Notes: generated from the sequence alone by a model not told the origin. DNA of 24,418 nucleotides from Clostridia bacterium (GCA_017419325.1 JAFOLN010000173.1:1-24418), one strand, 5' to 3'; shown: positions 4,941 to 22,028, counted from the stretch's first letter. Numbers and translations: made by a program.

Positions 4941-5651
<711 letters not shown>

Positions 5652-5671
5652 GAGCTTTAAGGAGGTTTTTT

Positions 5672-6946
5672 ATGACTATACTTATAAAAAAGGCGCGGGT
5701 CATTGACCCGACGCAGAAGCTTGACCGCATTTCCGATATACTTATAGGGGACGGAAAAATAAAGAAGCTGGCGCTTTCGATAAACGAAAAGGCGGACACC
5801 GTGATAGACGGCGCCGACTGCATCGCCGCGCCCGGCTTTATAGATATGCACGTTCATTTCCGCGATCCCGGATTTGAATACAAGGAGGATATCATAACGG
5901 GCGCGAGGGCGGCCTTAAAGGGCGGCTTTACGTCGGTAGCCTGCATGGCGAACACGAAGCCCGTCTGCGATACGCCCGAGGTCGTAAAATATATAAAGGA
6001 CAAGGCGCTTGAGACCCATGTGAACGTATATCCCGTGGCGGCCATGACGAAGGGGCTTAGGGGCGAGGAGATGACCGACATAAAAGCCCTTAAGGCGGCG
6101 GGAGCCATCGCCGTGTCGGACGACGGCCGCCCCGTTGAGAACTCAAAGATGATGCTCGACGTGTTAAGAAGCGCGGACGACAACAACATCCTCTCCATAG
6201 CCCACAGCGAGGACTTAAGCCTTGTGGACGGCGGCGTTATAAACGAGGGACGCGTATCGTCCGAGTTCGGCCTTCGCGGCATGTCCCGCATGGCGGAATA
6301 TATGGCGGTGGCGCGGGACGTTATGCTCTCCATACCGAAGAAAAACAGGCTCCATATAGCCCACGTAAGCTGCAGGGAATCCGTTGAGGCCATACGCTGG
6401 GCGAAGACGCTTAACCCCAACATAACGTGCGAGACCGCGCCGCATTACGTTTCCCTTACGGAGAACAACGTGATGAAGCTGGGCGTAAACGCAAAGATGA
6501 ACCCGCCGCTTCGCACCCAGGAGGATGTGGACGCGGTGATAGAGGGCTTAAGGGACGGCACGATAGACGCGATAGCGACGGATCACGCGCCCCATTCCGA
6601 GGAGGACAAGGGCGAGCTTTCAAAGGGCGCTTTCGGCATCGTGGGCCTTGAAACGGCGCTGCCCGTATGCTATACGTATCTCGTTGCGGCGGGGAAGATG
6701 AGCATAAGAAAGCTTATCCGCTTAATGAGCACGAATCCCGCGGCAATCCTCGGCATAGAGGGCGGAAGCCTCACCACGGGAAGCCGCGCCGACATCGTGA
6801 TATTCGACACGGAGGAGCACAGGGTGAACCGTGCGAATTTCGCGTCAAAATCGAAAAACACTCCCTTCGACGGCATGACGCTTCGCGGCCGCGTGCTGTG
6901 CACCATATCGAACGGAGAGCTTGTATATAAAAGTGAAATGATATAG
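5672..6946 (+). CDS. pyrC: Dihydroorotase (long, type I)
   Basis: PGFIDMHVHFRDPG, SDDG, HSED, HIAHVS, KMNPPLR and IATDHAPH; ATG 5672 behind AAGGAGG. Confidence 0.95.
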   Translation: MTILIKKARVIDPTQKLDRISDILIGDGKIKKLALSINEKADTVIDGADCIAAPGFIDMHVHFRDPGFEYKEDIITGARAALKGGFTSVACMANTKPVCDTPEVVKYIKDKALETHVNVYPVAAMTKGLRGEEMTDIKALKAAGAIAVSDDGRPVENSKMMLDVLRSADDNNILSIAHSEDLSLVDGGVINEGRVSSEFGLRGMSRMAEYMAVARDVMLSIPKKNRLHIAHVSCRESVEAIRWAKTLNPNITCETAPHYVSLTENNVMKLGVNAKMNPPLRTQEDVDAVIEGLRDGTIDAIATDHAPHSEEDKGELSKGAFGIVGLETALPVCYTYLVAAGKMSIRKLIRLMSTNPAAILGIEGGSLTTGSRADIVIFDTEEHRVNRANFASKSKNTPFDGMTLRGRVLCTISNGELVYKSEMI

Positions 6947-6954
6947 GAGGAAAT

Positions 6955-7869
6955 ATGTCGATAGATGTCCTTATTAAAAAGATAAAAGAGAAAAACAACC
7001 CCACGGTGGCGGGGCTCGACCCTCTTCTTTCGTATGTGCCGGAGCACATAACGACAGAGTGCTTTAAAAAGTACGGCGAGACGCTTGAGGGAGCATCCAA
7101 GGCCATATACCGCTTCAACACCGCGCTAATTGACGAGCTTTCCGACGTGGTGGCGGCGGTGAAGCTCCAGTCGGCATATTACGAGCTTTACGGCTGGCGC
7201 GGCGTTAAAGTGCTCGATGAGACCGTAAGATACGCAAAAGACAAGGGACTTTACGTCATCGTTGACGTAAAGCGAAACGACATAGGCTCCACCGCGAAGG
7301 CTTACGCGGGCGCGTACCTTTCGGGCGCGGACGTGGGCGGCAAGCTTATACCCGCGTTCGGCGCGGATTCGATAACCGTAAACGGCTATCTCGGCACCGA
7401 CGGCATAACCCCCTTTACGGAGGCGTGCCGCGAACATAAAAAGAGCATTTTCGTGCTTGTAAAAACGTCGAACCCCTCATCCGGCGAGCTTCAGGACAAA
7501 AAGATAGGCGAAAGCCCCGTATATGAGGTGATGGCCGACATGGTAAACGGCTGGGGCGAAGGGCTTATCGGCGAATACGGCTATTCCTGTGTGGGCGCGG
7601 TCGTGGGAGCGACGTACCCCGAGATGCAGAAGGTGTTAAGAAAGCGTATGCCGAAGGCGTACTTCCTCGTGCCGGGCTACGGCGCGCAGGGCGCGGGTGC
7701 GGCCGACGTTGTGAACGCCTTCAATGAGGACGGCCTCGGCGCGGTGATAAATTCGTCGAGAGCCATAATGTGCGCATATAAAAAGACGGGCGACTCTGTA
7801 AACTTCGCCCGCGCGGCAAGAGACGAGGCCGTGCGCATGAGAGATGAGATAACGGCGGCGCTGGGCTGA
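6955..7869 (+). CDS. pyrF: Orotidine-5'-phosphate decarboxylase (long subfamily)
   Basis: DVKRNDIGST catalytic DxKxxD, VKTSNPSS, GAVVGATYP, LVPGYGAQG and NSSR. Confidence 0.95.
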   Translation: MSIDVLIKKIKEKNNPTVAGLDPLLSYVPEHITTECFKKYGETLEGASKAIYRFNTALIDELSDVVAAVKLQSAYYELYGWRGVKVLDETVRYAKDKGLYVIVDVKRNDIGSTAKAYAGAYLSGADVGGKLIPAFGADSITVNGYLGTDGITPFTEACREHKKSIFVLVKTSNPSSGELQDKKIGESPVYEVMADMVNGWGEGLIGEYGYSCVGAVVGATYPEMQKVLRKRMPKAYFLVPGYGAQGAGAADVVNAFNEDGLGAVINSSRAIMCAYKKTGDSVNFARAARDEAVRMRDEITAALG

Positions 7870-7917: not shown

Positions 7918-8991
7918 ATGCAGGCGGTTTTAGTGCTTGAAAGCGGAGAAAGATTTTACGGCCGTTCGTTCGGCGCGGAGGCAAACGCTGCGGGTGAGCT
8001 TGTCTTCTATTCCGCAATGGCGGGATATCAGGAGGTATTATGCGACCCCGCGCATCAGAATAAGCTTGTTATAATGACGTACCCCATGGTGGGCAGCTAC
8101 GGCGTGAACGAGCAGGACGGCACGGATTTCTGCGCAACGGGCCTTATAGTCAAGGAATACGTGGACTATCCCAGCAACTTCCGTTCGGAGGGTACGCTTT
8201 CCGAGCTGATGAAGGAGAAGGGCGTAGTCGGCATAGAGGGAATAGATACGCGCGCGCTGGTAAAGAGGCTGAGAAACGGCGACCGCATCCGCGCCGCGCT
8301 TATTGCAACGGACGACAAGATCGATTTTGAAGAGGTGGGCTTCATCCTTGAATGCACGCCCCTCGATTTCGGCGTGCTTGGCATGACGGGCGACTTCCCC
8401 GAGGTATACAGACCCGAGGGGGAGACGAAGTGCCGCATTGCGCTTTACGATTTCGGCACGAAGAAAAGCGTTATAAACGCCTTCACGTCGCAGGGCGCTG
8501 AGGTCACCGTATATCCGCCGAGAAGCGACGTTGACAATATCGCCCGCATGAACTTTGACGCGCTCATAATAGCGGGCGGCGCGGGCGAGCTTGAGGACAG
8601 CATAAAGAAGTATACCGAGAGGGTGAAGGCTCTCATCGCCCTGGGGCTTCCCACGCTGGGCGTCGACATGGGTCATCTCATGATTGCGGCGGCGCTGGGC
8701 GGAAAGATAAAGCAGATGGACAAGGCGCACAGAAGCGCGTCCTGCACCGTGCGCGACATTAAGGCGTCCCGCGTTTATCCCACGCAGCAGAGCCACGTAT
8801 ACGAGGTGTGCGCGGACGCGCTCCCCGAGGGCGCAGAGGTCTCCTTCGTATGTCAGAACGACGGCTGCGTTGAAGGACTTGATTACCCCGAAAAGAATAT
8901 AAAGACCGTGCAGTTCTATCCCGACGGCTACCCGAAGGAATACGGCACCGGTTATGTATACAGCGAATTTTTAGACTCGCTCAAAGGTTAG
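7918..8991 (+). CDS. carA: Carbamoyl-phosphate synthetase small subunit, glutaminase active site degenerate
   Basis: N-terminal GELVF...GYQEVLCDP...TYPMVGSYG and GIDTRALVKRLR identify CarA, and it lies directly before carB. The catalytic motifs read GVDMGHL and QFYPD instead of GICLGHQ and QF/YHPE. Confidence 0.9.
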   Translation: MQAVLVLESGERFYGRSFGAEANAAGELVFYSAMAGYQEVLCDPAHQNKLVIMTYPMVGSYGVNEQDGTDFCATGLIVKEYVDYPSNFRSEGTLSELMKEKGVVGIEGIDTRALVKRLRNGDRIRAALIATDDKIDFEEVGFILECTPLDFGVLGMTGDFPEVYRPEGETKCRIALYDFGTKKSVINAFTSQGAEVTVYPPRSDVDNIARMNFDALIIAGGAGELEDSIKKYTERVKALIALGLPTLGVDMGHLMIAAALGGKIKQMDKAHRSASCTVRDIKASRVYPTQQSHVYEVCADALPEGAEVSFVCQNDGCVEGLDYPEKNIKTVQFYPDGYPKEYGTGYVYSEFLDSLKG

Positions 8992-9003: not shown

Positions 9004-12000
9004 ATGCCACTTCGCAAGGAACTTAAAAAAGTACTCGTTATCGGCTCCGGACCGATAATCATAGGACAGGCGGCGGAATTCGACTACGCCGGCACGCAGG
9101 CCTGCAAGGCGCTTAAAGAGGACGGCATATGCGTTGTTCTGGTAAACTCCAATCCGGCGACCATAATGACCGACAAGCATATGGCGGACAAGATATACCT
9201 TGAGCCGCTCAACATAGACGTTTTAAAGAGGATAATAGAGATAGAAAGACCCGACGCCGTGCTCTCGAACCTGGGCGGTCAGATGGGACTTAACTTAAGC
9301 ATAGAGCTTGCCGAAAGCGGATTTTTGGACGAATACGGCGTGAAGCTCCTCGGAGCAAAGGTGGACACCATAAGAAAGGCGGAGGACCGTCAGGCGTTCA
9401 AGGACACCATGGAGGAGATAGGCGAGCCCTGCATCGCGTCTAAGGTCGTAACGACCATCGAGGACGCGGTGGACTTCGCAAAGGAAATAGACTACCCCGT
9501 TATAGTGCGCCCCGCGTATACCATGGGCGGCACCGGCGGCGGCCGCGCGAACGACGAGGCGCAGCTTCGTGAGATAGCCGAGGTGGGCATCCGCTCCAGC
9601 CGCGTGGGTCAGATACTCATAGAGAAGTGCGTGGCCGGATGGAAGGAGATAGAGTATGAGGTAATGCGCGACAGCGCGGGCAACGCCATTTCCATATGCA
9701 ACATGGAAAACGTGGACCCCGTAGGCGTCCACACGGGCGACAGCATAGTTGTGGCTCCGACTCAGACGCTCTCCGCCATGGAGTGCGCGCGCCTTCGCGC
9801 CTCGGCTCTGAAGATAGTATGCGCGCTGGGCGTTGAGGGCGGCTGCAACGTGCAGTTCGCCGTTGACCCCGACAGCTTTGACTATGCCGTAATAGAGGTA
9901 AATCCGCGAGTATCGCGCTCAAGCGCCCTTGCGTCAAAGGCTACGGGCTATCCGATAGCAAGAGTTGCGTCGAAGATCGCCATAGGCTACAATCTTGACG
10001 AGATAAAGAACTCCGTAACGGGCACCACCTTCGCATCGAGCGAGCCGTCCATCGACTATATCGTACTTAAATTCCCCAAGTGGCCCTTCGACAAGTTCGT
10101 ATACGGCGACAGAACGCTGGGCACGCAGATGAAGGCCACGGGCGAGGTAATGTGCATAGCCGACAGCTTCGAGGCGGCGCTCATGAAGGCCGTTCGCTGC
10201 ATAGAGCTGAAGCTTGACCGCATGTACATGCCCCACATTGAGGAGATGGAGCTTCCCGAGATAATAGAAGGCATAAAGAAGTGCAACGACGAGCGCATTT
10301 TCTACATCTGCGCGGCACTGCGGCGCGGCGTGACCATCGATGAGATATACGACCTTACGAAGATGGACAGATGGTTCGTTCATAAGCTTCAGGGCCTTAT
10401 CAACATGGAATACATGCTTGAAAACGAGCTTCTTACCCCCGGCGTTTACCGCGAGGCAAAGAAGATGGGCTTTTTGGACAGCACCATAGAAAACCTTTCG
10501 GGCGAGAAGATAAAGGCTCCCATAAAGCCCGTATACAAGATGGTCGACACCTGCGCGGGCGAGATAGAGGCGAAGACGCCGTACTACTATTCCACCTACG
10601 ACGAGGACAACGAGGCGCGCCCCTCCGACAAGAAGAAGATACTCGTTTTCGGCTCCGGCCCCATAAGAATAGGCCAGGGCATAGAGTTCGACTACTGCTC
10701 CGTACACTGCGTATGGGCTCTTAAGAACCTGGGCTACGAGACGATAATCGCAAACAACAACCCCGAGACCGTATCCACCGACTTCGACACCTCCGACAGG
10801 CTCTATTTCGAGCCTTTGACCCGCGAGGACGTGCTCTCCATACTTGAAACGGAGAAGCCCGACGGCGCGATAGTGCAGTTCGGCGGTCAGACGGCCATAA
10901 ACCTTGTACAGCATATAAAGGACTCCGGCGTAAAGATTCTCGGCACCCAGCCCGACATGATAGACGCGGCGGAGGACAGAGAGATATTCGACGGCGTGCT
11001 TGAAAGATGCGGCATACCGAGACCGAAGAGCGCAAGCGTATTCAAGCTGGACGAGGCGCTCGCGGCGGCGAACGACATAGGCTACCCCGTGCTTGTGCGC
11101 CCCTCCTATGTTCTCGGCGGCAAGGGCATGGTAATCGCGTATAACGACGACGACGTGAAGGAATTCATGGGCATCATAAACCGCGAGGTTCAGGAGCACC
11201 CCATACTCATCGACAAGTACATGATGGGCAAGGAGGTAGAGGTAGACGCCATAAGCGACGGCAAGGACATCCTCATCCCCGGCATAATGGAGCATCTTGA
11301 GCGCGCGGGCGTTCACTCCGGCGACTCCATCTCCGTATATCCGGCGTACAGCCTGTCGGACGAGACGAAGAAGACCATAGTTGAATATACGGCCCGCCTC
11401 GCAAAGGAGCTTAAGGTGCTCGGCCTTCTTAACATCCAGTACGTCGTATATGACGGCAAGGTATACGTTATAGAAGTAAACCCGCGTTCGTCGCGCACGG
11501 TGCCTTACATCTCGAAGGTAACGAACATCCCGATGATAGAGCTTGCGACGCGCTGCATCTTAGGCGAGCCGTTAAAGAGCCTCGGATTCGGCACGGGCAT
11601 ATATAAGGAGAGCGACTATGTTGCCGTAAAGGTTCCCGTATTCTCCTTTGAGAAGCTCCACGACGTTGACACCCAGCTCGGCCCCGAGATGAAGTCCACG
11701 GGCGAGGTTTTAGGCCTTGCGCGCACCTTTGACGAGGCGCTCCTTAAGGGCCTTACCGCCAGCGGATATAAGCTCAACAGAACGGGCGGCGTGCTCTTCT
11801 CCATAAGGGATCAGGATAAGCCGGAGCTTTCCGCGCTGGCGCGCAAGTTCGTCGATATGGGCTTCTCCATATACGGCACGGGCGGCACCGCAAGGTTCCT
11901 CCGTCAGAACGGCATAGACGCCACCAGCGTAAAGAAGATAAGCGAGGACAAGGACGATAACGTTTTGAACTTCATTGAAAGCGGCAAGGTAAACTACGTT

Positions 12001-12180
12001 ATAAGCACCTCTACCCACGGCAGACAGCCCCAGAGAGAGGGCGTTCGCATCCGCCGCAAGTCGGTAGAGCGCGGCGTCGTATGCCTCACCTCCTTCGATA
12101 CGGCCAACGCCGTTGTGGAGTGCCTGCACCTTGACAAGAAGGCGCATGAGCTTGAAATGGTGAATATAGCTGATATATAA
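9004..12180 (+). CDS. carB: Carbamoyl-phosphate synthetase large subunit
   Basis: 1058 aa with duplicated ATP-grasp halves (GSGPIIIGQAAEFDY and GSGPIRIGQGIEFDY), GVHTGDS/GVHSGDS, EVNPR twice, and a C-terminal MGS-like domain. Confidence 0.98.
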   Translation: MPLRKELKKVLVIGSGPIIIGQAAEFDYAGTQACKALKEDGICVVLVNSNPATIMTDKHMADKIYLEPLNIDVLKRIIEIERPDAVLSNLGGQMGLNLSIELAESGFLDEYGVKLLGAKVDTIRKAEDRQAFKDTMEEIGEPCIASKVVTTIEDAVDFAKEIDYPVIVRPAYTMGGTGGGRANDEAQLREIAEVGIRSSRVGQILIEKCVAGWKEIEYEVMRDSAGNAISICNMENVDPVGVHTGDSIVVAPTQTLSAMECARLRASALKIVCALGVEGGCNVQFAVDPDSFDYAVIEVNPRVSRSSALASKATGYPIARVASKIAIGYNLDEIKNSVTGTTFASSEPSIDYIVLKFPKWPFDKFVYGDRTLGTQMKATGEVMCIADSFEAALMKAVRCIELKLDRMYMPHIEEMELPEIIEGIKKCNDERIFYICAALRRGVTIDEIYDLTKMDRWFVHKLQGLINMEYMLENELLTPGVYREAKKMGFLDSTIENLSGEKIKAPIKPVYKMVDTCAGEIEAKTPYYYSTYDEDNEARPSDKKKILVFGSGPIRIGQGIEFDYCSVHCVWALKNLGYETIIANNNPETVSTDFDTSDRLYFEPLTREDVLSILETEKPDGAIVQFGGQTAINLVQHIKDSGVKILGTQPDMIDAAEDREIFDGVLERCGIPRPKSASVFKLDEALAAANDIGYPVLVRPSYVLGGKGMVIAYNDDDVKEFMGIINREVQEHPILIDKYMMGKEVEVDAISDGKDILIPGIMEHLERAGVHSGDSISVYPAYSLSDETKKTIVEYTARLAKELKVLGLLNIQYVVYDGKVYVIEVNPRSSRTVPYISKVTNIPMIELATRCILGEPLKSLGFGTGIYKESDYVAVKVPVFSFEKLHDVDTQLGPEMKSTGEVLGLARTFDEALLKGLTASGYKLNRTGGVLFSIRDQDKPELSALARKFVDMGFSIYGTGGTARFLRQNGIDATSVKKISEDKDDNVLNFIESGKVNYVISTSTHGRQPQREGVRIRRKSVERGVVCLTSFDTANAVVECLHLDKKAHELEMVNIADI

Positions 12181-12183
12181 GAT

Positions 12184-12211
12184 AAAAAATGCGGGCCGTG
12201 AAAAGCCCGCA
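12184..12211. terminator. Hairpin 1 of carB/rnfB convergent gap
   Basis: AAAAAA-TGCGGGC-CGTGAAAA-GCCCGCA; the A-tract gives a U-tract on the minus strand only. Confidence 0.55.
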
Positions 12212-12237
12212 CGCCTCCCTTAAAGGGATTATTTAAG

Positions 12238-12276
12238 AAAAAAGACAGCGCGGCAAATCCGTTGCTGTCTTTTTTC
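12238..12276. terminator. Bidirectional terminator 2 of carB/rnfB gap
   Basis: A-tract-GACAGC..CGG-CAAAT-CCG..GCTGTC-T-tract. Confidence 0.8.
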
Positions 12277-12329: not shown

Positions 12330-13196
12330 TTAATTTTTCGGCGTCACCGATACTGGCTCGTTTTCCTTATTGAAGAAAACTGCCTTATCGGTGTCGATCT
12401 TTATTATCTTCTTCGGGCACTTCTCAACGCACTTGCCGCACTCGATGCACTTTTCGTAATCGATCTTTGCAAGGTTGTCGGTGACGGTTATCGCGCCTGT
12501 GGGGCATACCTTCGTGCACATGCGGCAGCCGATGCAGCCGGCAGTGCACTTTTCCTTCATGGCCGCGCCCTTGTCGTGGGAGTGGCACATTACGAAGATG
12601 CTGCTGTCGTAGGGCACCATCTCGATTATCTTCTTGGGGCACGCGTCGCGGCACATACCGCAGGCCACGCACTTTTCCTTGTCAACGACAGCCACGCCGT
12701 CCTGAATGCTTATCGCGCCGAACTTGCACACCTTTGCGCAGGTGCCGAGTCCTATGCAGCCGAATTCGCAGTACTTCGTGCCGTTGCCGAATCTCATTGC
12801 CGATACGCAGTCGGTAACGCCGTCGTACTCATACTTAAGACGGGCCGCTATGTTGTTCTTGCCGGAGCAGACTACGCGCGCGCCGTAGCGAACGGCGTTC
12901 TCCGCGGGAGCCATGCCCATTATTTCCGCTATGCGGTCATACGTCTCGTTCGACGAAACGGGGCAGGCGTTGGGCTTCGCCTTGCCTTCAACGATAGCCG
13001 AAGCCAGCGCGTTGCAGCCTGCAAAGCCGCAGCCGCCGCAGTTCGCGCCGGGGAGCGTATCTGCTATCTCGCCTATACGCTCGTCGGTATCAACGGCGAA
13101 CGCCTTCGACGCTATGCCAAGGATTATACCGAAGATAAGTCCGAGTATTGCAAGCGTTCCTACGGCGTATACGATACTCATAACATCAATATTCAT
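12330..13196 (-). CDS. rnfB: Rnf complex subunit B (polyferredoxin)
   Basis: N-terminal TM helix, LPGANCGGCGFAGC, and multiple CxxCxxCxxxCP clusters. Confidence 0.95.
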   Translation of the reverse strand: MNIDVMSIVYAVGTLAILGLIFGIILGIASKAFAVDTDERIGEIADTLPGANCGGCGFAGCNALASAIVEGKAKPNACPVSSNETYDRIAEIMGMAPAENAVRYGARVVCSGKNNIAARLKYEYDGVTDCVSAMRFGNGTKYCEFGCIGLGTCAKVCKFGAISIQDGVAVVDKEKCVACGMCRDACPKKIIEMVPYDSSIFVMCHSHDKGAAMKEKCTAGCIGCRMCTKVCPTGAITVTDNLAKIDYEKCIECGKCVEKCPKKIIKIDTDKAVFFNKENEPVSVTPKN

Positions 13197-13208
13197 TATA
13201 CACGCCTC

Positions 13209-13793
13209 CTATACGACCTTGAGACCCGAGAATCCCATGAAAGCGATGGCCATAAGCGACGCGCTTACGAGCGCGATGGGCAGACCCTCGAAGCTCTTCG
13301 GGATATCGGAGTATTCAAGTCTTTCACGCACGGATGCAAACAGCACGATGGCCAGCGTAAAGCCTACCGCAGCCGTGAATCCGTATACGATGGATTCGAT
13401 AAAGTTGTAGTCGTTCTGTATGTTCAGAAGCGCAACGCCCAGTACGGCGCAGTTCGTCGTTACGAGCGGCAGGTAAATACCGAGCGACGAGTAGAGCGCG
13501 GGCATCATCTTCTGGAGCGCCATCTCTATGAACTGAACGAGGGACGCGATTACAAGGATGAACACGACGGTCTGCATAAATCCAAGCCCGAAAACGTCAA
13601 GGATAAAATGCTGTATGAGCCACGTTATCGCGGAGGCGATAGTCATGGTGAAGGTTACCGCCATGCCCATGCCGGAGGCCGTCTCGACCTTTTTGGAAAC
13701 GCCTAAGAACGGGCAGCAGCCGAGGAACTTATTGAATATAAAGTTCTCGACGAGAACCGCGCCGAGGGCAATCTGGAATAATGAAGTCAGCAT
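13209..13793 (-). CDS. rnfA: Rnf complex subunit A
   Basis: [16 protein letters not shown] and [12 protein letters not shown]; TAATG overlap with rnfE. Confidence 0.95.
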
Positions 13794-14419
13794 TATGCGT
13801 TACCCTCCTTCTTTTCCTTCTTTTTTCTCTGTATAAGCTGTATTACGGCAACGATTATACCCAGCACCAAGAATCCGCCGGGAGCCATGCCGATTATCGA
13901 CGCCGGCTGGAACGCGGAGCCGAATACCTCGTGACCTAAGAACGTGCCTGCGCCGAATATCTCACGCACCGTTGCTATGATGAACAGCGCGAAGGTAAAT
14001 CCGAGGCCCATGGTGAGTCCGTCGAAGAAGGACGCGCCCACCGTTCTCTTGGAAGCGAACGCCTCCGCACGGCCGAGTATGATACAGTTTACAACGATAA
14101 GCGGTATGAAAAGACCCAGCGACTTTGAAAGCGAGGGACCGTACGCCTTTAAAATCAGGTCTATCATCGTAACGAATCCCGCGATTATTACGATATAAGC
14201 CGCTATTCTTATCTTTTTCGGGATCACCTTTCTCAAAAGAGAGATGACCACGTTCGAGGCAATGAGTACGACCATTGCCGAAACGCCCATACCGAGTCCG
14301 TTTTCAACGCTGGAGGTTGTTGCCAGCGTGGGACATATGCCGAGCGTCTGCATGAGCACCGGGTTGTTTGTGATTATGCCCGATTTGAACATTTCGCCTA
14401 TTTTAAAATTTTTAGCCAT
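13793..14419 (-). CDS. rnfE: Rnf complex subunit E
   Basis: [16 protein letters not shown] and [19 protein letters not shown]. Confidence 0.95.
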
Positions 14420-14435
14420 ATCCTGCGCCTCCTCC

Positions 14436-15038
14436 CTAATTTACTTGCGCCGCAACCTGTGCGGCAACCTCAACTGCCAGGTTTACACCGGTGGTCACAG
14501 CCGTTGACGATATCGTAGCGCCGGAGATCGCGCGTATCTCGGACGGGCCGGGCTGCGCGTTCTTTATAACGGCGATGGGCGCTTTGTTTCCGTCAAACTG
14601 CGTTATGAAGTCCTCTTCGGTAACGCGGGTGCCCAGTCCGGGGGTCTCCGAATTGGTGGAGAGCACGCGCACGCTCTTTACGGTGCCGTCGGGGAGCACG
14701 CCGACCATAAGATCGATGGCGCCGCCGAAGCCGTTGGGCGAGGAAGCCACGGCAAAGCCCATAAGCTCGCCGTCCGCGCCGTATGCGGCGTAAACGGAGG
14801 AGATGCGCTTTTTGTCAACGTCTGCGGGGACCGCAAGCTCGGTAGTTTCGGTGGAGTCGGGATAAATGCTTGCGATAGCGTTGTCTATCTCAAGCTGTGC
14901 CTGATATGCTATCTGATCCTTCGTGATGGAGTTTACAAAGCCGAGCACAAGCGCAACGCAGAAGGTTATAATGAAAAGGATTATGCCCAGTTTTGCGATG
15001 CTGTCGTTTTTCTTTTTCGTTTTAACGGCCTGGCTCAT
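14436..15038 (-). CDS. rnfG: Rnf complex subunit G
   Basis: N-terminal anchor, GFGGAI, ETPGLG, and ISGATISS covalent-FMN motif. Confidence 0.94.
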   Translation of the reverse strand: MSQAVKTKKKNDSIAKLGIILFIITFCVALVLGFVNSITKDQIAYQAQLEIDNAIASIYPDSTETTELAVPADVDKKRISSVYAAYGADGELMGFAVASSPNGFGGAIDLMVGVLPDGTVKSVRVLSTNSETPGLGTRVTEEDFITQFDGNKAPIAVIKNAQPGPSEIRAISGATISSTAVTTGVNLAVEVAAQVAAQVN

Positions 15039-16009
15039 TTTTTATCCCCCTCTCCGAACGCCTTCGGCTTCGTATGGGTGTCTATGAGCCATACGCAGGC
15101 GTTCATAAGAAGAATGGAATAAGATACGCCCTCGGGGTATGAGCCGAAATATCTTATAAATACCGTAAGCAGACCGCAGCCTACTCCGAATATTATCTGT
15201 CCTTTTTTAGTTACGGGAGAAGTTGCGTAGTCGGTCGCCATGAATATCGCGCCCAGCATAAGGCCGCCGCTTAAAACGTGAGAGAGCATGAATTCGAGAT
15301 TGTTGTTGCCCTTCGCGAATATAAACGTAAGAACTGCGACCGTCAGTATGTATGCAAGGGGTATGCGCACGGTTATTACCTTGCGGATAACGAGGTACGC
15401 GCCGCCTATAAGCAGGCACAGGGCGCTCGTCTCGCCGATGCATCCTCCCACATCGCCTATAAACAGGTTAAAGAGTCCCGCATCGGGTATATTGCCCGCC
15501 TTTAAAGCTACGAGCGGGGTAGCGGTCGCTATCGCGTCCGTTGCCGGAGTTGCGAAAAGCGGCAGCACCGTATGCGGAGCCGTCCACGTAGTCATTATGA
15601 CTGCCCATGAAAAGAGGAACGCTCTTGCAGCCAGCGCCGGGTTCATGAAGTTCTGTCCCAGACCGCCGAAGAACTGCTTTACGACGATTATCGCGAACGC
15701 ACCGCCGACTATTCCGATCCACAGCGGCGCGGCCACAGGCAGGTTGTATGCAAGGAGAATACCCGTGACTACCGCGGATAAGTCTCCTATTGTGTTGTAG
15801 CCTTTTTTCGTTATCTTGTTATATGCCCATTCCGACACAAGGCAGGAAGCCACCGTTATGATAATGTGCATAAGGGCGCGGGGGCCGAAGAAATATACTC
15901 CGACAACGCCTGCGGGCACGAGCGCGATGATAACGTCGCGCATTATCTTTGTTACGGTCTCATCCGACCTCATATGCGGCGATGATGACATGACATAGCT
16001 TGTATTCAA
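15035..16009 (-). CDS. rnfD: Rnf complex subunit D
   Basis: SSSPH, KQFFGGLGQNFMNPA, ATATPL (FMN Thr), GCIGETS and FMATDY; TTG start. Confidence 0.95.
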   Translation of the reverse strand: MNTSYVMSSSPHMRSDETVTKIMRDVIIALVPAGVVGVYFFGPRALMHIIITVASCLVSEWAYNKITKKGYNTIGDLSAVVTGILLAYNLPVAAPLWIGIVGGAFAIIVVKQFFGGLGQNFMNPALAARAFLFSWAVIMTTWTAPHTVLPLFATPATDAIATATPLVALKAGNIPDAGLFNLFIGDVGGCIGETSALCLLIGGAYLVIRKVITVRIPLAYILTVAVLTFIFAKGNNNLEFMLSHVLSGGLMLGAIFMATDYATSPVTKKGQIIFGVGCGLLTVFIRYFGSYPEGVSYSILLMNACVWLIDTHTKPKAFGEGDKK

Positions 16010-16088
16010 ATACTCACGCCTCCTACTGATTATTTATACGGGCGAAAAAGCGCTCCGTATATAACGGCAATCTGTGAAACATGAAAGA

Positions 16089-17453
16089 TCAAGACGCCTT
16101 TTTTTCCTCGGCTTCTTTTTTTGCCTTTGCCTCTTCTGCGCGGCGGCGGCGGATTTCCCCAACCTTTGCCTTCGCGTCGCGTATGTTCTGAACGAGGTAT
16201 TTCTTGCCCGGACATGTGAAGCTGCACGTTCCGCACTCTATGCACGACATAACGTCGAACTTTTCCAGCTTTTCGTAATCCTTCTTTTCGGCATACATGG
16301 AAAGCATTACGGGAAGCAGGTTCATGGGGCAGGCGTTTATGCACTTGCCGCATCTTATGCAGAAGGTGCGTTCGGGCTTCTCAACGCTCTTTTTCGTAAG
16401 GCAGAGTATGCCCGAGGTGGTCTTTACAACGGGAATGTCCGTGCGGTACTGAGCCGCGCCCATCATGGGGCCGCCCATTATGACCTTGGCGGGCTCTTCC
16501 TTGAAGCCGCCGCACTTTTCAAGCACATAATCGAAGGTGGAGCCGATGCGCACTCTTACGTTGGCCGTCGAGAACACGGCGTCGCCCGTTACCGTGACGA
16601 TACGCTCGAAAAGAGGCTTTCTTCTCTGTATCATCTCGTAGATGGCGTATACGGTGCCCGCGTTCATGATTATCGCGCCCACCTCGCTGGGAAGCTTGCC
16701 GGTAGGGATAACGCGGCCCGATACTGCGTATACGAGCTGCTTTTCGCCGCCCTGCGGGTACTTCGTTTTAAGCGGCACTATCTCGATATCGCTGCGGTTT
16801 TTCACCATTTCCTGATATCTGTCGATAACGTCCTGCTTGTTGTCCTCCACGGCGAAGTATATTTTCGAGTCGAATATCTTCGTTATGGCGGTAAGACCGT
16901 CGATTATCTCGTTGGGGTACTCCATCATAAGGCGGTAGTCGTTCGTAAGATACGGCTCGCACTCCGCCGCGTTTATGATTACGTAATCGATCTTCGTTTC
17001 CGCGCAGGAGATTATCTTCGACGACGTGGGGAAGCCCGCGCCGCCCATGCCGACAATGCCGCCCTCGCGTATGAGCGAGATGAGCGTGTCGCGGTCAAGC
17101 TCGCCCAGACGGTCGTTGAACGAAAAATCCTCAAACGGCTCGTCCTGGTGATCGTTCTCAATGATGACCGACATGACCTCAACGCCCCGCGGATTGGGAC
17201 ACGGCTTTATCTCAAGCACAGTACCCGAAACGCTTGAGTGTACCGGAGATGAAATAAACGCTTTTGAATCGCCTATTTTCTGTCCCATTTTTACATGGTC
17301 TCCCACTGCCACCAGCGGCTCGCACGGCGCACCGATGTGCTGAGACAGCGGGATGATCACCTTATCAGGCGCGTCGATAGTCACGATAGCCTTGTCCTTT
17401 GAAAGCTCTTTGAAATCGTGAGGATGTGCGCCACCTTTAAAGGTTCTTTTCAA
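16089..17453 (-). CDS. rnfC: Rnf complex subunit C
   Basis: PLSQHIGAP, GMGGAGFPT, NAAECEPYLTND, KYPQGGEKQL, and two CxxCxxCxxxCP motifs; TTG start behind GAGGTG. Confidence 0.96.
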   Translation of the reverse strand: MKRTFKGGAHPHDFKELSKDKAIVTIDAPDKVIIPLSQHIGAPCEPLVAVGDHVKMGQKIGDSKAFISSPVHSSVSGTVLEIKPCPNPRGVEVMSVIIENDHQDEPFEDFSFNDRLGELDRDTLISLIREGGIVGMGGAGFPTSSKIISCAETKIDYVIINAAECEPYLTNDYRLMMEYPNEIIDGLTAITKIFDSKIYFAVEDNKQDVIDRYQEMVKNRSDIEIVPLKTKYPQGGEKQLVYAVSGRVIPTGKLPSEVGAIIMNAGTVYAIYEMIQRRKPLFERIVTVTGDAVFSTANVRVRIGSTFDYVLEKCGGFKEEPAKVIMGGPMMGAAQYRTDIPVVKTTSGILCLTKKSVEKPERTFCIRCGKCINACPMNLLPVMLSMYAEKKDYEKLEKFDVMSCIECGTCSFTCPGKKYLVQNIRDAKAKVGEIRRRRAEEAKAKKEAEEKKAS

Positions 17454-17521
17454 TTCAAATCACCTCTCATCCTAAACTTTTACATTATGATACTGAGTAT
17501 ATCACAACTATAGCTTTTAAA

Positions 17522-17550
17522 ATTGTATCACCCTTGAGGCGTAAATTCAA
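17522..17550 (-). promoter_or_regulatory. sigmaA promoter TTGAAT-N17-TACAAT (extended -10) for rnf operon
   Basis: On the minus strand, -35 is at 17550-17545 and TGa-TACAAT has its -10 at 17527-17522, about 70 nt upstream of rnfC. Confidence 0.72.
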
Positions 17551-17634
17551 TTACTTATATATAAGTATTTTGTGACATTCTTGTGCTCAATTAGTCAATA
17601 ATCCGAAAAAAACACAGCGTATATTGTCAAAAAA

Positions 17635-17666
17635 CGCAAAAAAAGAGGGAAGTCCCTCTTTTTGCG
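17635..17666 (-). terminator. Terminator after HtrA-like gene
   Basis: AAAAAAAGAGGG-AAGT-CCCTCTTTTT, 7 nt beyond the stop codon. Confidence 0.8.
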
Positions 17667-17672
17667 CCCACG

Positions 17673-18845
17673 TTATCCGTTTTCCTCCAGCATAAGCCGT
17701 ACCCGAAGCCTTAATGACACGCCGCCGCGCCACACGTCGAGCGTTACCTCGTCTCCCGCGCGGAAGCGCTCCTTTTCGTGGTTAAGCTCGCTCATGCCGG
17801 AGACGGCCCTGCCGTTTATCCCCGTTATAACGTCGCCCTCCTTGAGCCCCGCCCCCGCCGCGTAGCCGCCGGGGCTTACGAAATCCACATACACGCCCGC
17901 GGGCACGCCGTAAAAGTCGGAGGCGCTCTTTGAGATGTCGTGACCCGATATGCCGATGACCGGGCGGCTTTTAACGTGCCCCGCTTCTATAAGGTCCTCG
18001 ATGATGGGCTTTGCCGTGTTTATCGGTATGGCGAATCCCAGCCCCTCCGCGTCGGAGGAGGCTATCTTAACCGAATTTATGCCGATGACCTTGCCGTACT
18101 GGTTTATGAGCGGCCCGCCGGAATTGCCCAGGTTTATGGACGCGTCCGTCTGTATAAGCGTCATGATGCGGTCGTTTATCGTAAGATCGCGGTTCACGGC
18201 GGAGATTATGCCCGCCGTGACGGTGCCGGAAAGCTCAAGCCCCATGGGGTTCCCTATGGCCACCGCAAGGTCGCCCTCCTCCACGGCGTCGGAGTTTCCG
18301 AACTCGGCGCAGGTGAGGCCTTTCGCCTCTATCTTAAGCACGGCGAGATCGCTTTTTCGGTCGCGCCCCACCACGCTTGCCGTAAACTCCCGCCCGTCGT
18401 AAAGCACAACGGAGGGGTCAAAGGAATCCTCCACCACGTGAGCGTTCGTTACAATGTATCCGTCGGGCGTCATTATGATGCCCGTGCCCGTGTTGCGCCC
18501 GACAAGCGTCGTGCCCCTGTAAAGGCTCGACACCACGCCGACGACGGCGGGCTTGTTCTCCTTTATTATTTCCTTTATGGAAAGCGCCGCCGCGTCCGTG
18601 TCAGAAGCCTCCGCAGTCACACCGTCGGAAGACGCGGAAGCGGCCTCCTCCTGTGCCGCCGCCGTGCCGTCATGGCGGGCGATGATGTCGGGGAGGGGGA
18701 GAAGCCCCGCGCTCCCGAAAAAGAACACCGCCGCAAGAGCCAGCGCCGCCGCGGACAAGGCCGCCGCCCGCCTGAGAATTACGCCCCGCCTGTGCTCTCT
18801 GAACACATCCCGCGCCGAAGAACCCGCATTTTTTCGCTCCGACAT
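17673..18845 (-). CDS. HtrA/DegP-family membrane-anchored serine protease (trypsin + one PDZ)
   Basis: Triad motifs TNAHVV, SDLAVLK and QTDASINLGNSGGPL, an N-terminal hydrophobic helix and a C-terminal PDZ. ATG 18845 lies behind GGAGGTG. Confidence 0.93.
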   Translation of the reverse strand: MSERKNAGSSARDVFREHRRGVILRRAAALSAAALALAAVFFFGSAGLLPLPDIIARHDGTAAAQEEAASASSDGVTAEASDTDAAALSIKEIIKENKPAVVGVVSSLYRGTTLVGRNTGTGIIMTPDGYIVTNAHVVEDSFDPSVVLYDGREFTASVVGRDRKSDLAVLKIEAKGLTCAEFGNSDAVEEGDLAVAIGNPMGLELSGTVTAGIISAVNRDLTINDRIMTLIQTDASINLGNSGGPLINQYGKVIGINSVKIASSDAEGLGFAIPINTAKPIIEDLIEAGHVKSRPVIGISGHDISKSASDFYGVPAGVYVDFVSPGGYAAGAGLKEGDVITGINGRAVSGMSELNHEKERFRAGDEVTLDVWRGGVSLRLRVRLMLEENG

Positions 18846-18867
18846 AGAAACCACCTCCGATAAGCAT

Positions 18868-19023: not shown

Positions 19024-19076
19024 TATTAAGGCAAAAAGCATAATTGGCTTTATTTGTGAAGGGAGTTATCCGTTTA

Positions 19077-19838
19077 ATGTCAAAAGCAACGTATAATGCA
19101 GAGATCGCCGCGAAGCGGTGGCATGCAGGAAACATCTACGAAATAATAATAGAATGCGAGCCCCTTGCGAGGGAATCGCAGGCGGGCCAGTTCCTGCAGG
19201 TGGCCTGCGGCGACGACACCTTTTTAAGGCGTCCCATAAGCATACATAATGTGGACGGCTCGCGCGTGAGCATGATATTTGAAGTAAAAGGACGCGGCAC
19301 CAGATATCTTTCGCAGCTTAAAACGGGCGACTGCATAAATGTGCTGGGCCCGCTGGGCAACGGCTTTGACACCGACATAGAGGGCGATGTGCTGCTTATC
19401 GGCGGGGGACTCGGAGTGTTCCCGCTCTATATGGTGGCAAAGGCGAAGGGCAAGTCCTGCGACGCGGTGCTGGGCTATAAGTCGGCACGCGACCTTGTAA
19501 GCCACGACAGATTCTCCGCCGTATGCCGCGAGGTGGTCATAACGACCGACGACGGCTCATACGGTATACAGGGCACGGCGGTTGCGGCGGCCCACAGCCT
19601 TGTTGTAAATCATCACTACAAGGCGATATGCGCCTGCGGCCCGCTTCCCATGCTCAAGGCGGTACACGCGCTTGCGTGCAAGTACAACATCCCGGCGTGG
19701 ATTTCACTTGAGGAGCGCATGGCCTGCGGCTTCGGCGTCTGCCTTGCCTGCGCCGTAAAGAGCGCCGACGACGATGTGGATTATCTCCACGTATGCAAGC
19801 ACGGCCCCGTTTTCAATTCCAAGGAGGTAATCCTGTGA
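19077..19838 (+). CDS. pyrK: Dihydroorotate dehydrogenase electron transfer subunit
   Basis: LRRPISI, LGPLGNGF, GGGLGVFP, CGPLPM and EERMACGFGVCLAC...C [2Fe-2S] motif; ATG 19077 behind GGAG. Confidence 0.93.
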   Translation: MSKATYNAEIAAKRWHAGNIYEIIIECEPLARESQAGQFLQVACGDDTFLRRPISIHNVDGSRVSMIFEVKGRGTRYLSQLKTGDCINVLGPLGNGFDTDIEGDVLLIGGGLGVFPLYMVAKAKGKSCDAVLGYKSARDLVSHDRFSAVCREVVITTDDGSYGIQGTAVAAAHSLVVNHHYKAICACGPLPMLKAVHALACKYNIPAWISLEERMACGFGVCLACAVKSADDDVDYLHVCKHGPVFNSKEVIL

Positions 19839-20752
19839 ATAAATTAAGTACAGCCGTAAATATAGCCGGAGTGGAGTTTAAGAACCCCATCGTCACGGCT
19901 TCTGGCACGTTCGGCTTCGGCCGCGAATTTTCGGAATTTTTCGATTTGTCCCAGCTGGGCGCCGTATCCGTGAAGGGTCTTACCTTAAAGCCCAAGGCGG
20001 GCAACCCGCCTCCGAGAGCCGCCGAAACGGCCTCGGGCATGCTCAATTCCGTGGGACTTCAGAACCCCGGCGTGGAGAGCTTCGTAAAAGACGAGCTGCC
20101 CTTCCTTCGCGGCTTCGACGTGAAGGTAATCGCCAACATGGCGGGCACCACGGTGGAGGAATACGAAGAGATGGCGCGCATCCTTTCCGACGCGGACGTA
20201 GACATGCTGGAGGTGAACATCTCATGCCCCAACGTAAAGGAGGGCGGCGTAGCCTTCGGAGTGGACGAAAAGGCGGTATATGAGGTGACGAGCCGCGTTA
20301 AGGCGGTATCGAAGAAGCCCGTTATCATAAAGCTTTCGCCCAACGTGACCGACATAAAGAAAATCGCAAAGGCGGCAGAGGACGGCGGCGCGGACGCGCT
20401 GTCCCTTATAAATACGCTCCTCGGCATGCGCATAGACATAAAGACGCGCAGACCCATACTTAAGAACAACACCGGCGGCCTTTCGGGCCCCGCGGTATTC
20501 CCCATAGCGGTGCGCATGGTTCACGACGTCTACGAGACGGTGAGCCTTCCCATAATCGGCATGGGCGGCGTTTCCCGCGGCGAGGACGCGGCGGAGCTCA
20601 TGATGGCGGGCGCGTCGGCGGTAGCCGTGGGCAGCGCGGCGCTTGTAAATCCGCTTGCGCCCATCGAGATAAAGCGCGGCCTTGAAAAGTTCATGGAGGA
20701 CAACGGCATAAAGGACGTGACTGAGCTTACGGGCTCGGCGAAAATGTGGTAA
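19835..20752 (+). CDS. pyrD: Dihydroorotate dehydrogenase class 1B catalytic subunit
   Basis: NPIVTASGTFG, NSVGLQNPG, EVNISCPNV (catalytic Cys), KLSPNV and GGLSGPA. GTG start overlaps the pyrK stop (GTGA), RBS AAGGAGG. Confidence 0.95.
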   Translation: MNKLSTAVNIAGVEFKNPIVTASGTFGFGREFSEFFDLSQLGAVSVKGLTLKPKAGNPPPRAAETASGMLNSVGLQNPGVESFVKDELPFLRGFDVKVIANMAGTTVEEYEEMARILSDADVDMLEVNISCPNVKEGGVAFGVDEKAVYEVTSRVKAVSKKPVIIKLSPNVTDIKKIAKAAEDGGADALSLINTLLGMRIDIKTRRPILKNNTGGLSGPAVFPIAVRMVHDVYETVSLPIIGMGGVSRGEDAAELMMAGASAVAVGSAALVNPLAPIEIKRGLEKFMEDNGIKDVTELTGSAKMW

Positions 20753-21821: not shown

Positions 21822-21830
21822 AACTTAATA

Positions 21831-22020
21831 AATCCCTGCCTGGCGCGTGATAGTCGTCATATTTTTGAACCTACACTTCAAAAATACGGGATTCCGGCTC
21901 TGTCGGTAAGATGTAGACCTCCCGCTTACGCGGACGAAGGGAACATGACGACCGCAGGAGGATACCCACCTGCAATTAGCAGGGTCAAAGAAATGATGAT
22001 TACACGGCGTGGCGGGGTAT
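21831..22020 (+). ncRNA. ssrS: 6S RNA
   Basis: ~190 nt rod: CCCTGCC/GGCGGGG, TAGTCGTCAT/ATGATGATTA and TTGAACC/GGGTCAA pair, with a central bubble. The Firmicute-type 3' motif ACCCACCTGC...GCAGGGTCAAA is present, and a terminator follows. Confidence 0.8.
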
Positions 22021-22028
22021 AATTTGAG

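Follow-up and report, generated by a model that had tools for sequence, protein, structure and literature searches.

The stretch of DNA studied here (the window, 24,418 nt) is JAFOLN010000173.1:1-24418 from the Clostridia bacterium genome GCA_017419325.1, hereafter G000. It carries a pyrimidine (pyr) operon whose carA gene, coding for the small subunit of carbamoyl-phosphate synthetase (CPS), encodes a homologue in which the glutaminase catalytic triad has been replaced. This gene and its product are called carA* and CarA*, and the product of the adjoining carB is called CarB*. The features at the center of this analysis are given below in window coordinates; dN/dS stands for the ratio of nonsynonymous to synonymous substitutions per site.

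7918..8991, + strand: carA*, a CarA homologue with its triad replaced by Asp250/Tyr334/Asp336 (profile searches, alignment, clade comparison, dN/dS, structural model)
8665..8667, + strand: GAC codon of Asp250, at the position of the E. coli CarA nucleophile Cys269 and at a strand-to-helix elbow in the model
8917..8925, + strand: Tyr334-Pro335-Asp336, replacing His353-Pro-Glu355
9004..12180, + strand: carB (1058 amino acids), intact large-subunit gene and presumed partner of carA* (TIGR01369, 1456 bits)

The carA* frame, preceded at a distance of 8 nt by the ribosome-binding site AAAGGAG, is open throughout (357 amino acids) and stops 12 nt before the start of carB; the two genes are separate and a ribosome-binding site is found inside the gap. 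The correspondence of residues was taken from HMMER alignments to the E. coli CarA chains 1cs0_B, 1c30_B and 1t36_B, in which GIC269LGHQ aligns with GVD250MGHL and H353-P-E355 with Y334-P-D336. The oxyanion loop SNGPGDP is changed to AGGAGEL (from 8572), TDPSY to CDPAH (Ser47 to Ala45) and QNHGF to QSHVY, while Gln273, Asn311 and Gly313 are respectively replaced by Leu254, Ser292 and Val294. We take Ser47, the SNGPGDP loop, Gln273, Asn311 and Gly313 to be glutamine-binding or oxyanion residues of E. coli CarA. After the old His-Pro-Glu motif, the canonical G-P-x-D reads K-E-Y-G in CarA*, in a segment that generally loses conservation in CarAs devoid of the triad (dead CarAs). The scaffold motifs GYQE, TYP, SNFR, GIDTRAL and CVEGL are all retained. 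In profile searches, CarA* matches PF00988 (CPSase_sm_chain) with 135 bits over residues 5-127 (137.9 bits in the genome search) and the class I glutamine amidotransferase (GATase) family PF00117 with 96.5 bits. It scores over the cut-off of NF009475 (291.8 bits for a cut-off of 221) and under that of TIGR01368, the "glutamine-hydrolyzing" equivalog (270.1 bits for a cut-off of 307.35). Class I amidotransferases require a Cys nucleophile. CarA* has neither the Cys-His-Glu triad nor the canonical oxyanion and active-site residues that define a glutamine-hydrolysing CPS (EC 6.3.5.5) and, as these residues are gone, the protein is probably unable to hydrolyse glutamine. The possibility that Asp250 acts as a new nucleophile was considered but seems unlikely, since the His base is lost and Gly is the commonest residue at that position in the other dead CarAs.

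The CarA fold is predicted to have outlived these changes. An AlphaFold model of CarA* based on 88 homologues has a mean predicted local distance difference test score (pLDDT) of 94.5 and a predicted template modelling score (pTM) of 0.92. In this model, a strand (246-250) is followed by a helix (251-259), with Asp250 sitting at the elbow between them. Foldseek aligned the model over its full length to E. coli CarA with template modelling (TM) scores of 0.89-0.90 (0.90 to 1cs0_B), at a sequence identity of 27-28% in the structural alignment, and to the N-terminal part of human CPS1 with TM scores of 0.81-0.86.

The closest relatives of CarA* share its unusual active site. A search of 5.8 billion proteins delimited a tight clade made up of one identical protein and four relatives, whose identities are 83, 81, 74 and 67%; none of the matches that follow exceeds 41%. 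The Asp/Tyr/Asp (D/Y/D) state and the same other substitutions are present in the five clade members, all with an open frame. D/Y/D is also found in both congeneric genomes, G001 and G002, where the gene lies in the same operon, and the 67% relative (from the Joint Genome Institute) has the gene order pyrR-pyrC-pyrF-carA*-carB-pyrK-pyrD. According to Nei-Gojobori estimates, carA* has a dN/dS of 0.11-0.17 in comparisons inside the genus (dS 0.7-0.9) and of 0.10-0.13 to the 67% relative, for which dS is saturated; the dead GATase domain alone gives 0.12-0.22. For comparison, the values are 0.08-0.11 for a canonical carA that the same genomes carry (see below) and 0.03-0.06 for both of their carB genes, and the evolutionary rate of CarA* is about 1.7 times that of the canonical CarA (dN of 0.10-0.12 against 0.05-0.07). 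carA* is under purifying selection. Animal-gut metagenome runs from several studies, ruminant and other, contain the stretch of the window. In two DNA runs, parts of carA*, including the Tyr-Pro-Asp codons at 8917-8925, are covered by contigs that show 0-10 differences to the window; among the metagenome contigs listed, none covers the Asp250 codon at 8665, and no insertions or deletions are reported over the stretch. The organism is known from metagenome-assembled genomes (MAGs) only: G002 is a sheep duodenum genome, and the named members found are "Clostridia bacterium" and "Christensenellales bacterium" MAGs. An earlier interpretation of this DNA, made from the sequence alone and referred to as the sequence-only reading, had described a full-length, uninterrupted gene of 357 codons that has a ribosome-binding site and ends 12 nt before carB, all of which is seen again here, and the alignment to the E. 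coli chains agrees with the replacements it had listed (D/Y/D, AGGAGE, Ala45, QSHVY) on a retained scaffold. The preservation of this scaffold is supported by the predicted structure (pLDDT 94.5, TM 0.90 to E. coli CarA). It had also proposed selection rather than decay, to be recognized by a clade-wide D/Y/D state and a dN/dS below 1; the state does extend to the five clade members and both congeners, and the proposal is borne out by this distribution, by the retained fold and by the low dN/dS of the gene (0.10-0.17) and of its dead GATase domain.

carA* is part of a block of co-directional genes, pyrR-pyrC-pyrF-carA*-carB, with a PyrR leader in front. The features upstream of carA* are:

4959..4987, + strand: promoter-like site upstream of the pyr leader (consensus scan, 9/12 matches; a pattern match only)
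4994..5106, + strand: PyrR binding site/attenuator leader (Rfam RF00515, 63.3 bits for a gathering score of 54)
5074-5098, + strand: intrinsic terminator hairpin and T-run within the PyrR leader (terminator scan)
5124..5651, + strand: pyrR, regulator/uracil phosphoribosyltransferase (NCBIfam NF003549, 212 bits, from residue 55 of a long open reading frame)
5642..6946, + strand: pyrC, dihydroorotase (PF01979, PF12890; TIGR00857, 399 bits)
6955..7869, + strand: pyrF, orotidine monophosphate decarboxylase, subfamily 2 (TIGR02127, 251.7 bits)

The true start of pyrR is the ATG at 5124, behind GGGAGG; the mechanically called reading frame starts at a TTG (4965) and runs through the leader and its terminator.

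Judging by its genes, the genome holds two carbamoyl-phosphate synthetases, not one. The G000 assembly (388 contigs, 97% complete) has a canonical CarA with the motifs GICLGHQ, SNGPGDP and QFHPE on contig C207, encoded after purF and before the start of a carB. The last 510 bp of C207 (3137-3646) match the start of contig C20 (1-510) at 96% identity, and the remainder of this carB is found on C20. The existence of a third carB was therefore rejected, as the two contigs represent one locus split by strain variation. This overlap also points to strain heterogeneity in the G000 MAG. The whole locus can be seen in G001, where glnA, the gene of an ANTAR response regulator, purF, carA, carB::dapF and nadE are tightly packed or overlapping and carA overlaps its own carB; in G000, the purF-carA-carB part is seen. 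The G001 fusion gene (L040:1610-5659, minus strand, 1349 amino acids) ends in a diaminopimelate epimerase domain (PF01678, 210 bits), and the same carB::dapF fusion occurs in L042, L044 and G000 contig C20. The fused DapF of G001 is apparently intact, since it keeps MCGN and ACGTG, which are presumably the two catalytic-cysteine motifs of this enzyme. The canonical locus is present in the three genomes of the genus that carry carA* (G000, G001 and G002), and its CarA is only 32-34% identical to CarA*. Contamination was rejected as the source of the canonical carA, given that both loci are also found in G001 and G002, with proteins 89-96% identical, and that the guanine-cytosine content of contigs C43 and C207 matches that of the genome. 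G000 also encodes two carbamoyltransferases, of the ornithine and aspartate carbamoyltransferase types (argG lies near one of the two genes), two ammonium transporters, a meso-diaminopimelate dehydrogenase (Ddh) and an LL-diaminopimelate aminotransferase (DapL). The sequence-only reading, which had proposed an ammonia-dependent synthetase, has to be corrected in that the organism is not purely ammonia-dependent: it has two synthetases, one of them with a canonical CarA. It had also warned that a canonical carA elsewhere could encode the real partner of CarB*. Such a gene does exist, yet it is followed by a carB of its own, and its product is therefore not required as the partner of CarB*.

The large subunit encoded next to carA* is intact, as had been claimed: besides its high TIGR01369 score, CarB*, when aligned to E. 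coli CarB, retains Glu217 and the ammonia gate formed by Cys232, Ala251 and Ala314 (gate residues from PMC8674909). Over residues 1-480, 26 CarBs partnered by a canonical CarA were compared with 8 whose partner is a dead CarA or that have none. The 26 canonical partners show little or no variation at positions 35, 261, 262, 320 and 346, all of which are substituted in the CarBs that partner a D/Y/D CarA, and likewise in two or more further lineages with a dead CarA or an orphan CarB. These positions (within window 9004-10443) are candidate sites of co-adaptation with the state of CarA. Residues 261-265 presumably lie at the tunnel/subunit interface, which serves as a lead only.

Other families of the order, represented by G032 and G033, have orthologous pyr operons with a Cys/His/Glu CarA and a CarB that is 68-69% identical to CarB*. 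carA* thus descends from a normal pyr-operon carA. The stem branch of the carA* clade is long (1.02 substitutions per site), and the protein is constrained again within the clade. At 46 of the 122 positions with at least 85% conservation across 166 canonical CarAs, the five clade members are all changed; about 16 of these 46 are insertion columns (a gap in the canonical CarA). The N-terminal domain keeps 29 of its 47 canonical-conserved positions and the GATase domain 25 of 65, and the replaced residues are mostly invariant within the clade, as in the segment HRSASCTVRD. The distribution of the loss was studied in a census of 151 genomes of the same order that are at least 90% complete, searched with PF00988, and of 100 further CarA regions; the triad was read from the alignment and two second copies (G034:C10 and G089:C90) were left out. 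The Cys is missing from 39 of the 130 CarA homologues in the census, mostly in favor of Gly and in a few cases of Asp, Ser, Asn or Arg. CarA* has the most thoroughly rebuilt active site seen in this work, with an Asp at the elbow. The genomes that could be classified (111: 109 of the sample plus G015 and G032) comprise 77 with canonical CarA only, 11 with both kinds and 23 with triad-less CarA only, so that the case is not unique, a second correction to the sequence-only reading: 34 of the 111 CarA-bearing genomes of the order have a triad-less CarA. In 42 of the 151 genomes, the N-terminal domain of CarA was not matched at all.

Some near-complete genomes illustrate the contexts in which dead CarAs are found. 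In G035 (97% complete), a single dead CarA is encoded next to the only carB of the genome, a carB::dapF fusion. In G011 (99%), the only CarA is dead and belongs to an argD-argF-carA-carB::dapF cluster, and the pyr operon, pyrC-carB-pyrK-pyrD, is devoid of carA (L046:5307-8480, minus strand). G040 (98%) has a Cys-to-Gly CarA in a full pyr operon and an orphan second carB. The order-level tree contains 19 maximal purely dead clades and requires at least 11 state changes, and we therefore read the triad losses within the order as repeated and independent. A larger tree of 297 homologues gives 27 changes, with low support at the large clade, and is too poorly resolved for an exact count of losses. 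Most of the best 150 representatives of 50%-identity clusters from 1.84 billion proteins also lack the Cys, in a list that is biased because the query itself is dead. Four very divergent second CarAs (L145-L148, from G148:C121, G005:C67, G134:C37 and G119:C31), with only 83-87 bits to PF00988, have Gly, Leu and Cys at the triad positions and group with other dead copies in the tree.

Several scenarios may explain these observations. The one that we favor, and that we consider probable, is that CarA* is the non-catalytic small subunit of a PyrR-controlled, ammonia-using synthetase, while the glutamine-dependent enzyme sits beside glutamine synthetase. In that case, a folded CarA* unable to split glutamine would pair with the CarB encoded 12 nt downstream and would be kept for the assembly, stability or kinetics of CarB*. 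Together they would form a PyrR-attenuated CPS dedicated to pyrimidines and fed by free ammonia instead of glutamine-derived ammonia, and the canonical CarA-CarB::DapF enzyme would provide a glutamine-dependent route in times of low ammonia or when nitrogen is handled in the form of glutamine. We infer the binding of CarA* to CarB*, the use of ammonia in vivo and the division of labor by nitrogen status from the data presented here, from the Cys requirement of class I amidotransferases and from two precedents, which jointly make a non-catalytic CarA* and ammonia use the most likely explanation. One is that the isolated large subunit of E. coli can form carbamoyl phosphate with ammonia as its nitrogen source (Trotta et al. 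1971, cited in PMC8121099). The other is CPS1, whose glutaminase-like domain is retained though inactive and whose ammonia comes from solution; its catalytic Cys is replaced, and a route of ammonia entry that bypasses the old site has been proposed (PMC4655335).

Some observations nevertheless weigh against this hypothesis. Evidence for the transcription of carA* is thin and consists of one 225-nt contig, identical to 7918-8142, from an RNA library that may contain DNA. Nitrogen control of the canonical locus is suggested by its gene neighborhood only; an Rfam scan of this locus for nitrogen-related RNA elements found none. The canonical CarA could in principle serve CarB* too. Finally, across the clade, invariant positions are more frequent in the old active-site neighborhood of CarA* than elsewhere in the protein (18/21 versus 179/336; one-sided Fisher p = 0.003, in a test that relies on five related sequences and on positions picked beforehand from prior knowledge), which could mean a new function and not a passive scaffold. 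The rebuilt pocket (Asp250, Ser273, Ser275, Cys276, Thr277, Ser292, Tyr334 and Asp336, plus the retained His253 and His293) might then give CarA* a role in regulation or sensing, through a bound ligand or metal, or in the delivery of nitrogen from a donor other than glutamine, by which it would modulate or feed CarB*. Such a role, which may coexist with ammonia use, would also fit the invariance of the substituted residues across five members at 67-100% identity and the dN/dS of the dead domain, but it seems unlikely to us. The other triad-less lineages mostly have Gly at the nucleophile position and are highly variable at the His position, which argues against a new site common to the triad-less class, and buried core or interface residues can be conserved for structure alone. 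We give a similarly low probability to the possibility that the pocket is a new functional site matched by the CarB* changes at 261, 262 and 346, be it an ammonia entry or gate, an effector or metal site, or the site of an alternative nitrogen donor.

Alternatively, the canonical CarA, which is encoded in all three carA*-bearing genomes of the genus, could supply ammonia to both large subunits, and CarA* would be a competing, stabilizing or vestigial protein with no role in nitrogen supply. The arrangement of the genes speaks against this: the canonical carA and its own carB form an overlapping pair inside one cluster, and carA* is just 12 nt away from its carB, with a ribosome-binding site in the gap. 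The low identity of the two CarAs, the differences of CarB* at positions 261, 262 and 346, which are (nearly) invariant in the partners of canonical CarA, and the 23 genomes of the order that have no canonical CarA at all also weigh against it. We attach little credence to this explanation. The faster evolution of CarA* relative to the canonical CarA, and the fact that the pyr operon of some relatives (G011) has lost carA altogether, could be taken to indicate that carA* is simply decaying. Yet its frame is open in 5/5 members, its dN/dS stays at 0.10-0.17 even at saturated dS and its model is confidently folded, while the recovery of the same sequence in independent assemblies and in the runs of several studies speaks against an assembly or sequencing artifact. 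In view of the dN/dS, the clade-wide conservation and the independent runs, a pseudogene or artifact was discarded and we regard this explanation as close to refuted.

The comparison with known systems helps to situate such an enzyme. CarA* shares with E. coli CarA (EC 6.3.5.5; PDB 1jdb, 1cs0) its two-domain architecture, its fold (TM 0.90), a largely conserved N-terminal domain and a place just upstream of carB, but its triad and other active-site residues are replaced and it falls under the TIGR01368 cut-off. In this respect, it resembles a natural and far more extensive version of the engineered E. coli C269S mutant (1c30/1c3o). The vertebrate mitochondrial CPS1 (EC 6.3.4.16; PDB 5dot/5dou) likewise has an inactive glutaminase-like module beside an active synthetase, as the dead module lies here beside an intact CarB. 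Human CPS1 has a Ser at the Cys position; in CarA*, all three triad residues are changed. CPS1 is also one fused polypeptide that needs N-acetylglutamate, while a stop codon and a 12-nt spacer separate the two genes here, the pathway is that of pyrimidines and the loss has an independent origin. Two CPS enzymes also coexist in the Bacillus type of dual CPS (PyrAA/PyrAB and CarA/CarB), one of them in a PyrR-attenuated pyr operon. Both Bacillus small subunits are taken to be active glutaminases, split by pathway (in part after PMC8121099). Here, by contrast, the pyr-operon copy is glutaminase-dead and the other copy is found with glnA and purF instead of arg genes. The gut anaerobe Bacteroides thetaiotaomicron likewise has two CPS enzymes, CarAB and an orphan CarB2 (PMC8121099), and a model has been proposed in which Ddh and CarB2 operate when ammonium is present, and DapLF and CarAB when it is not (Liu et al. 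2021, PMC8121099). The Ddh/DapL duality is common to this species and G000, and the canonical CPS of B. thetaiotaomicron has ties both to genes of nitrogen assimilation and to the DapL/DapF route, just as the canonical CPS here is linked to a glnA cluster and has a CarB::DapF fusion. Nevertheless, the CarB2 of B. thetaiotaomicron has no small subunit, while a dead small subunit is kept under selection here, and the evidence is genetic in that species and comparative only in ours. Orphan carB genes of the CarB2 type occur in relatives of our organism, in the pyr operon of G011 and as the second carB of G040.

A literature search found no paper describing a triad-less bacterial CarA. Liu et al. 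(2021) stated that all eubacterial CPSs found to date were glutamine-dependent and proposed the orphan CarB2, on genetic evidence only, as the first exception (PMC8121099). In our view, carA* would represent a CPS with an inactive glutaminase module that has an independent bacterial origin and separate subunits. The window also contributes the coexistence of a dead CarA with a canonical enzyme in a glnA-linked cluster, together with the Ddh/DapL duality and candidate co-varying CarB positions. Within one order of gut and rumen Clostridia, a substantial fraction of the genomes encodes small subunits that are apparently unable to split glutamine and that are in many cases the sole CarA. If these synthetases do use ammonia, reconstructions of gut and rumen pathways need to be corrected, as automatic annotation calls such proteins plain CarA, and the nitrogen economics of pyrimidine and arginine synthesis would change in ammonia-rich habitats; the losses would then be natural, independent replicates of the vertebrate transition from CPS II to CPS I. 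If the pocket has acquired a new function, gut anaerobes would possess, through their pseudo-glutaminase subunits, two CPSs between which they can switch according to nitrogen status. Genomes with both a dead and a live CarA offer a clean system to test these hypotheses.

The remaining features of the window lie downstream of carB:

12189..12268, no strand assigned: terminator-like hairpins between the convergent carB and rnfB (pattern match only)
19044..20752, + strand: pyrK and pyrD (PF10418, PF01180)

An Rnf cluster and an HtrA-type protease gene (12330-18854, minus strand) separate carB from pyrK-pyrD. RnfB and two Rnf-Nqr membrane subunits of this cluster were confirmed and the remaining reading frames are assumed to belong to it. 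Since pyrK-pyrD directly follow carB in the 67% relative, the position of the rnf-htrA block suggests an insertion or a rearrangement in the present genome. The window also contains a 6S RNA at 21830-22022 on the plus strand (Rfam RF00013, 71.1 bits).

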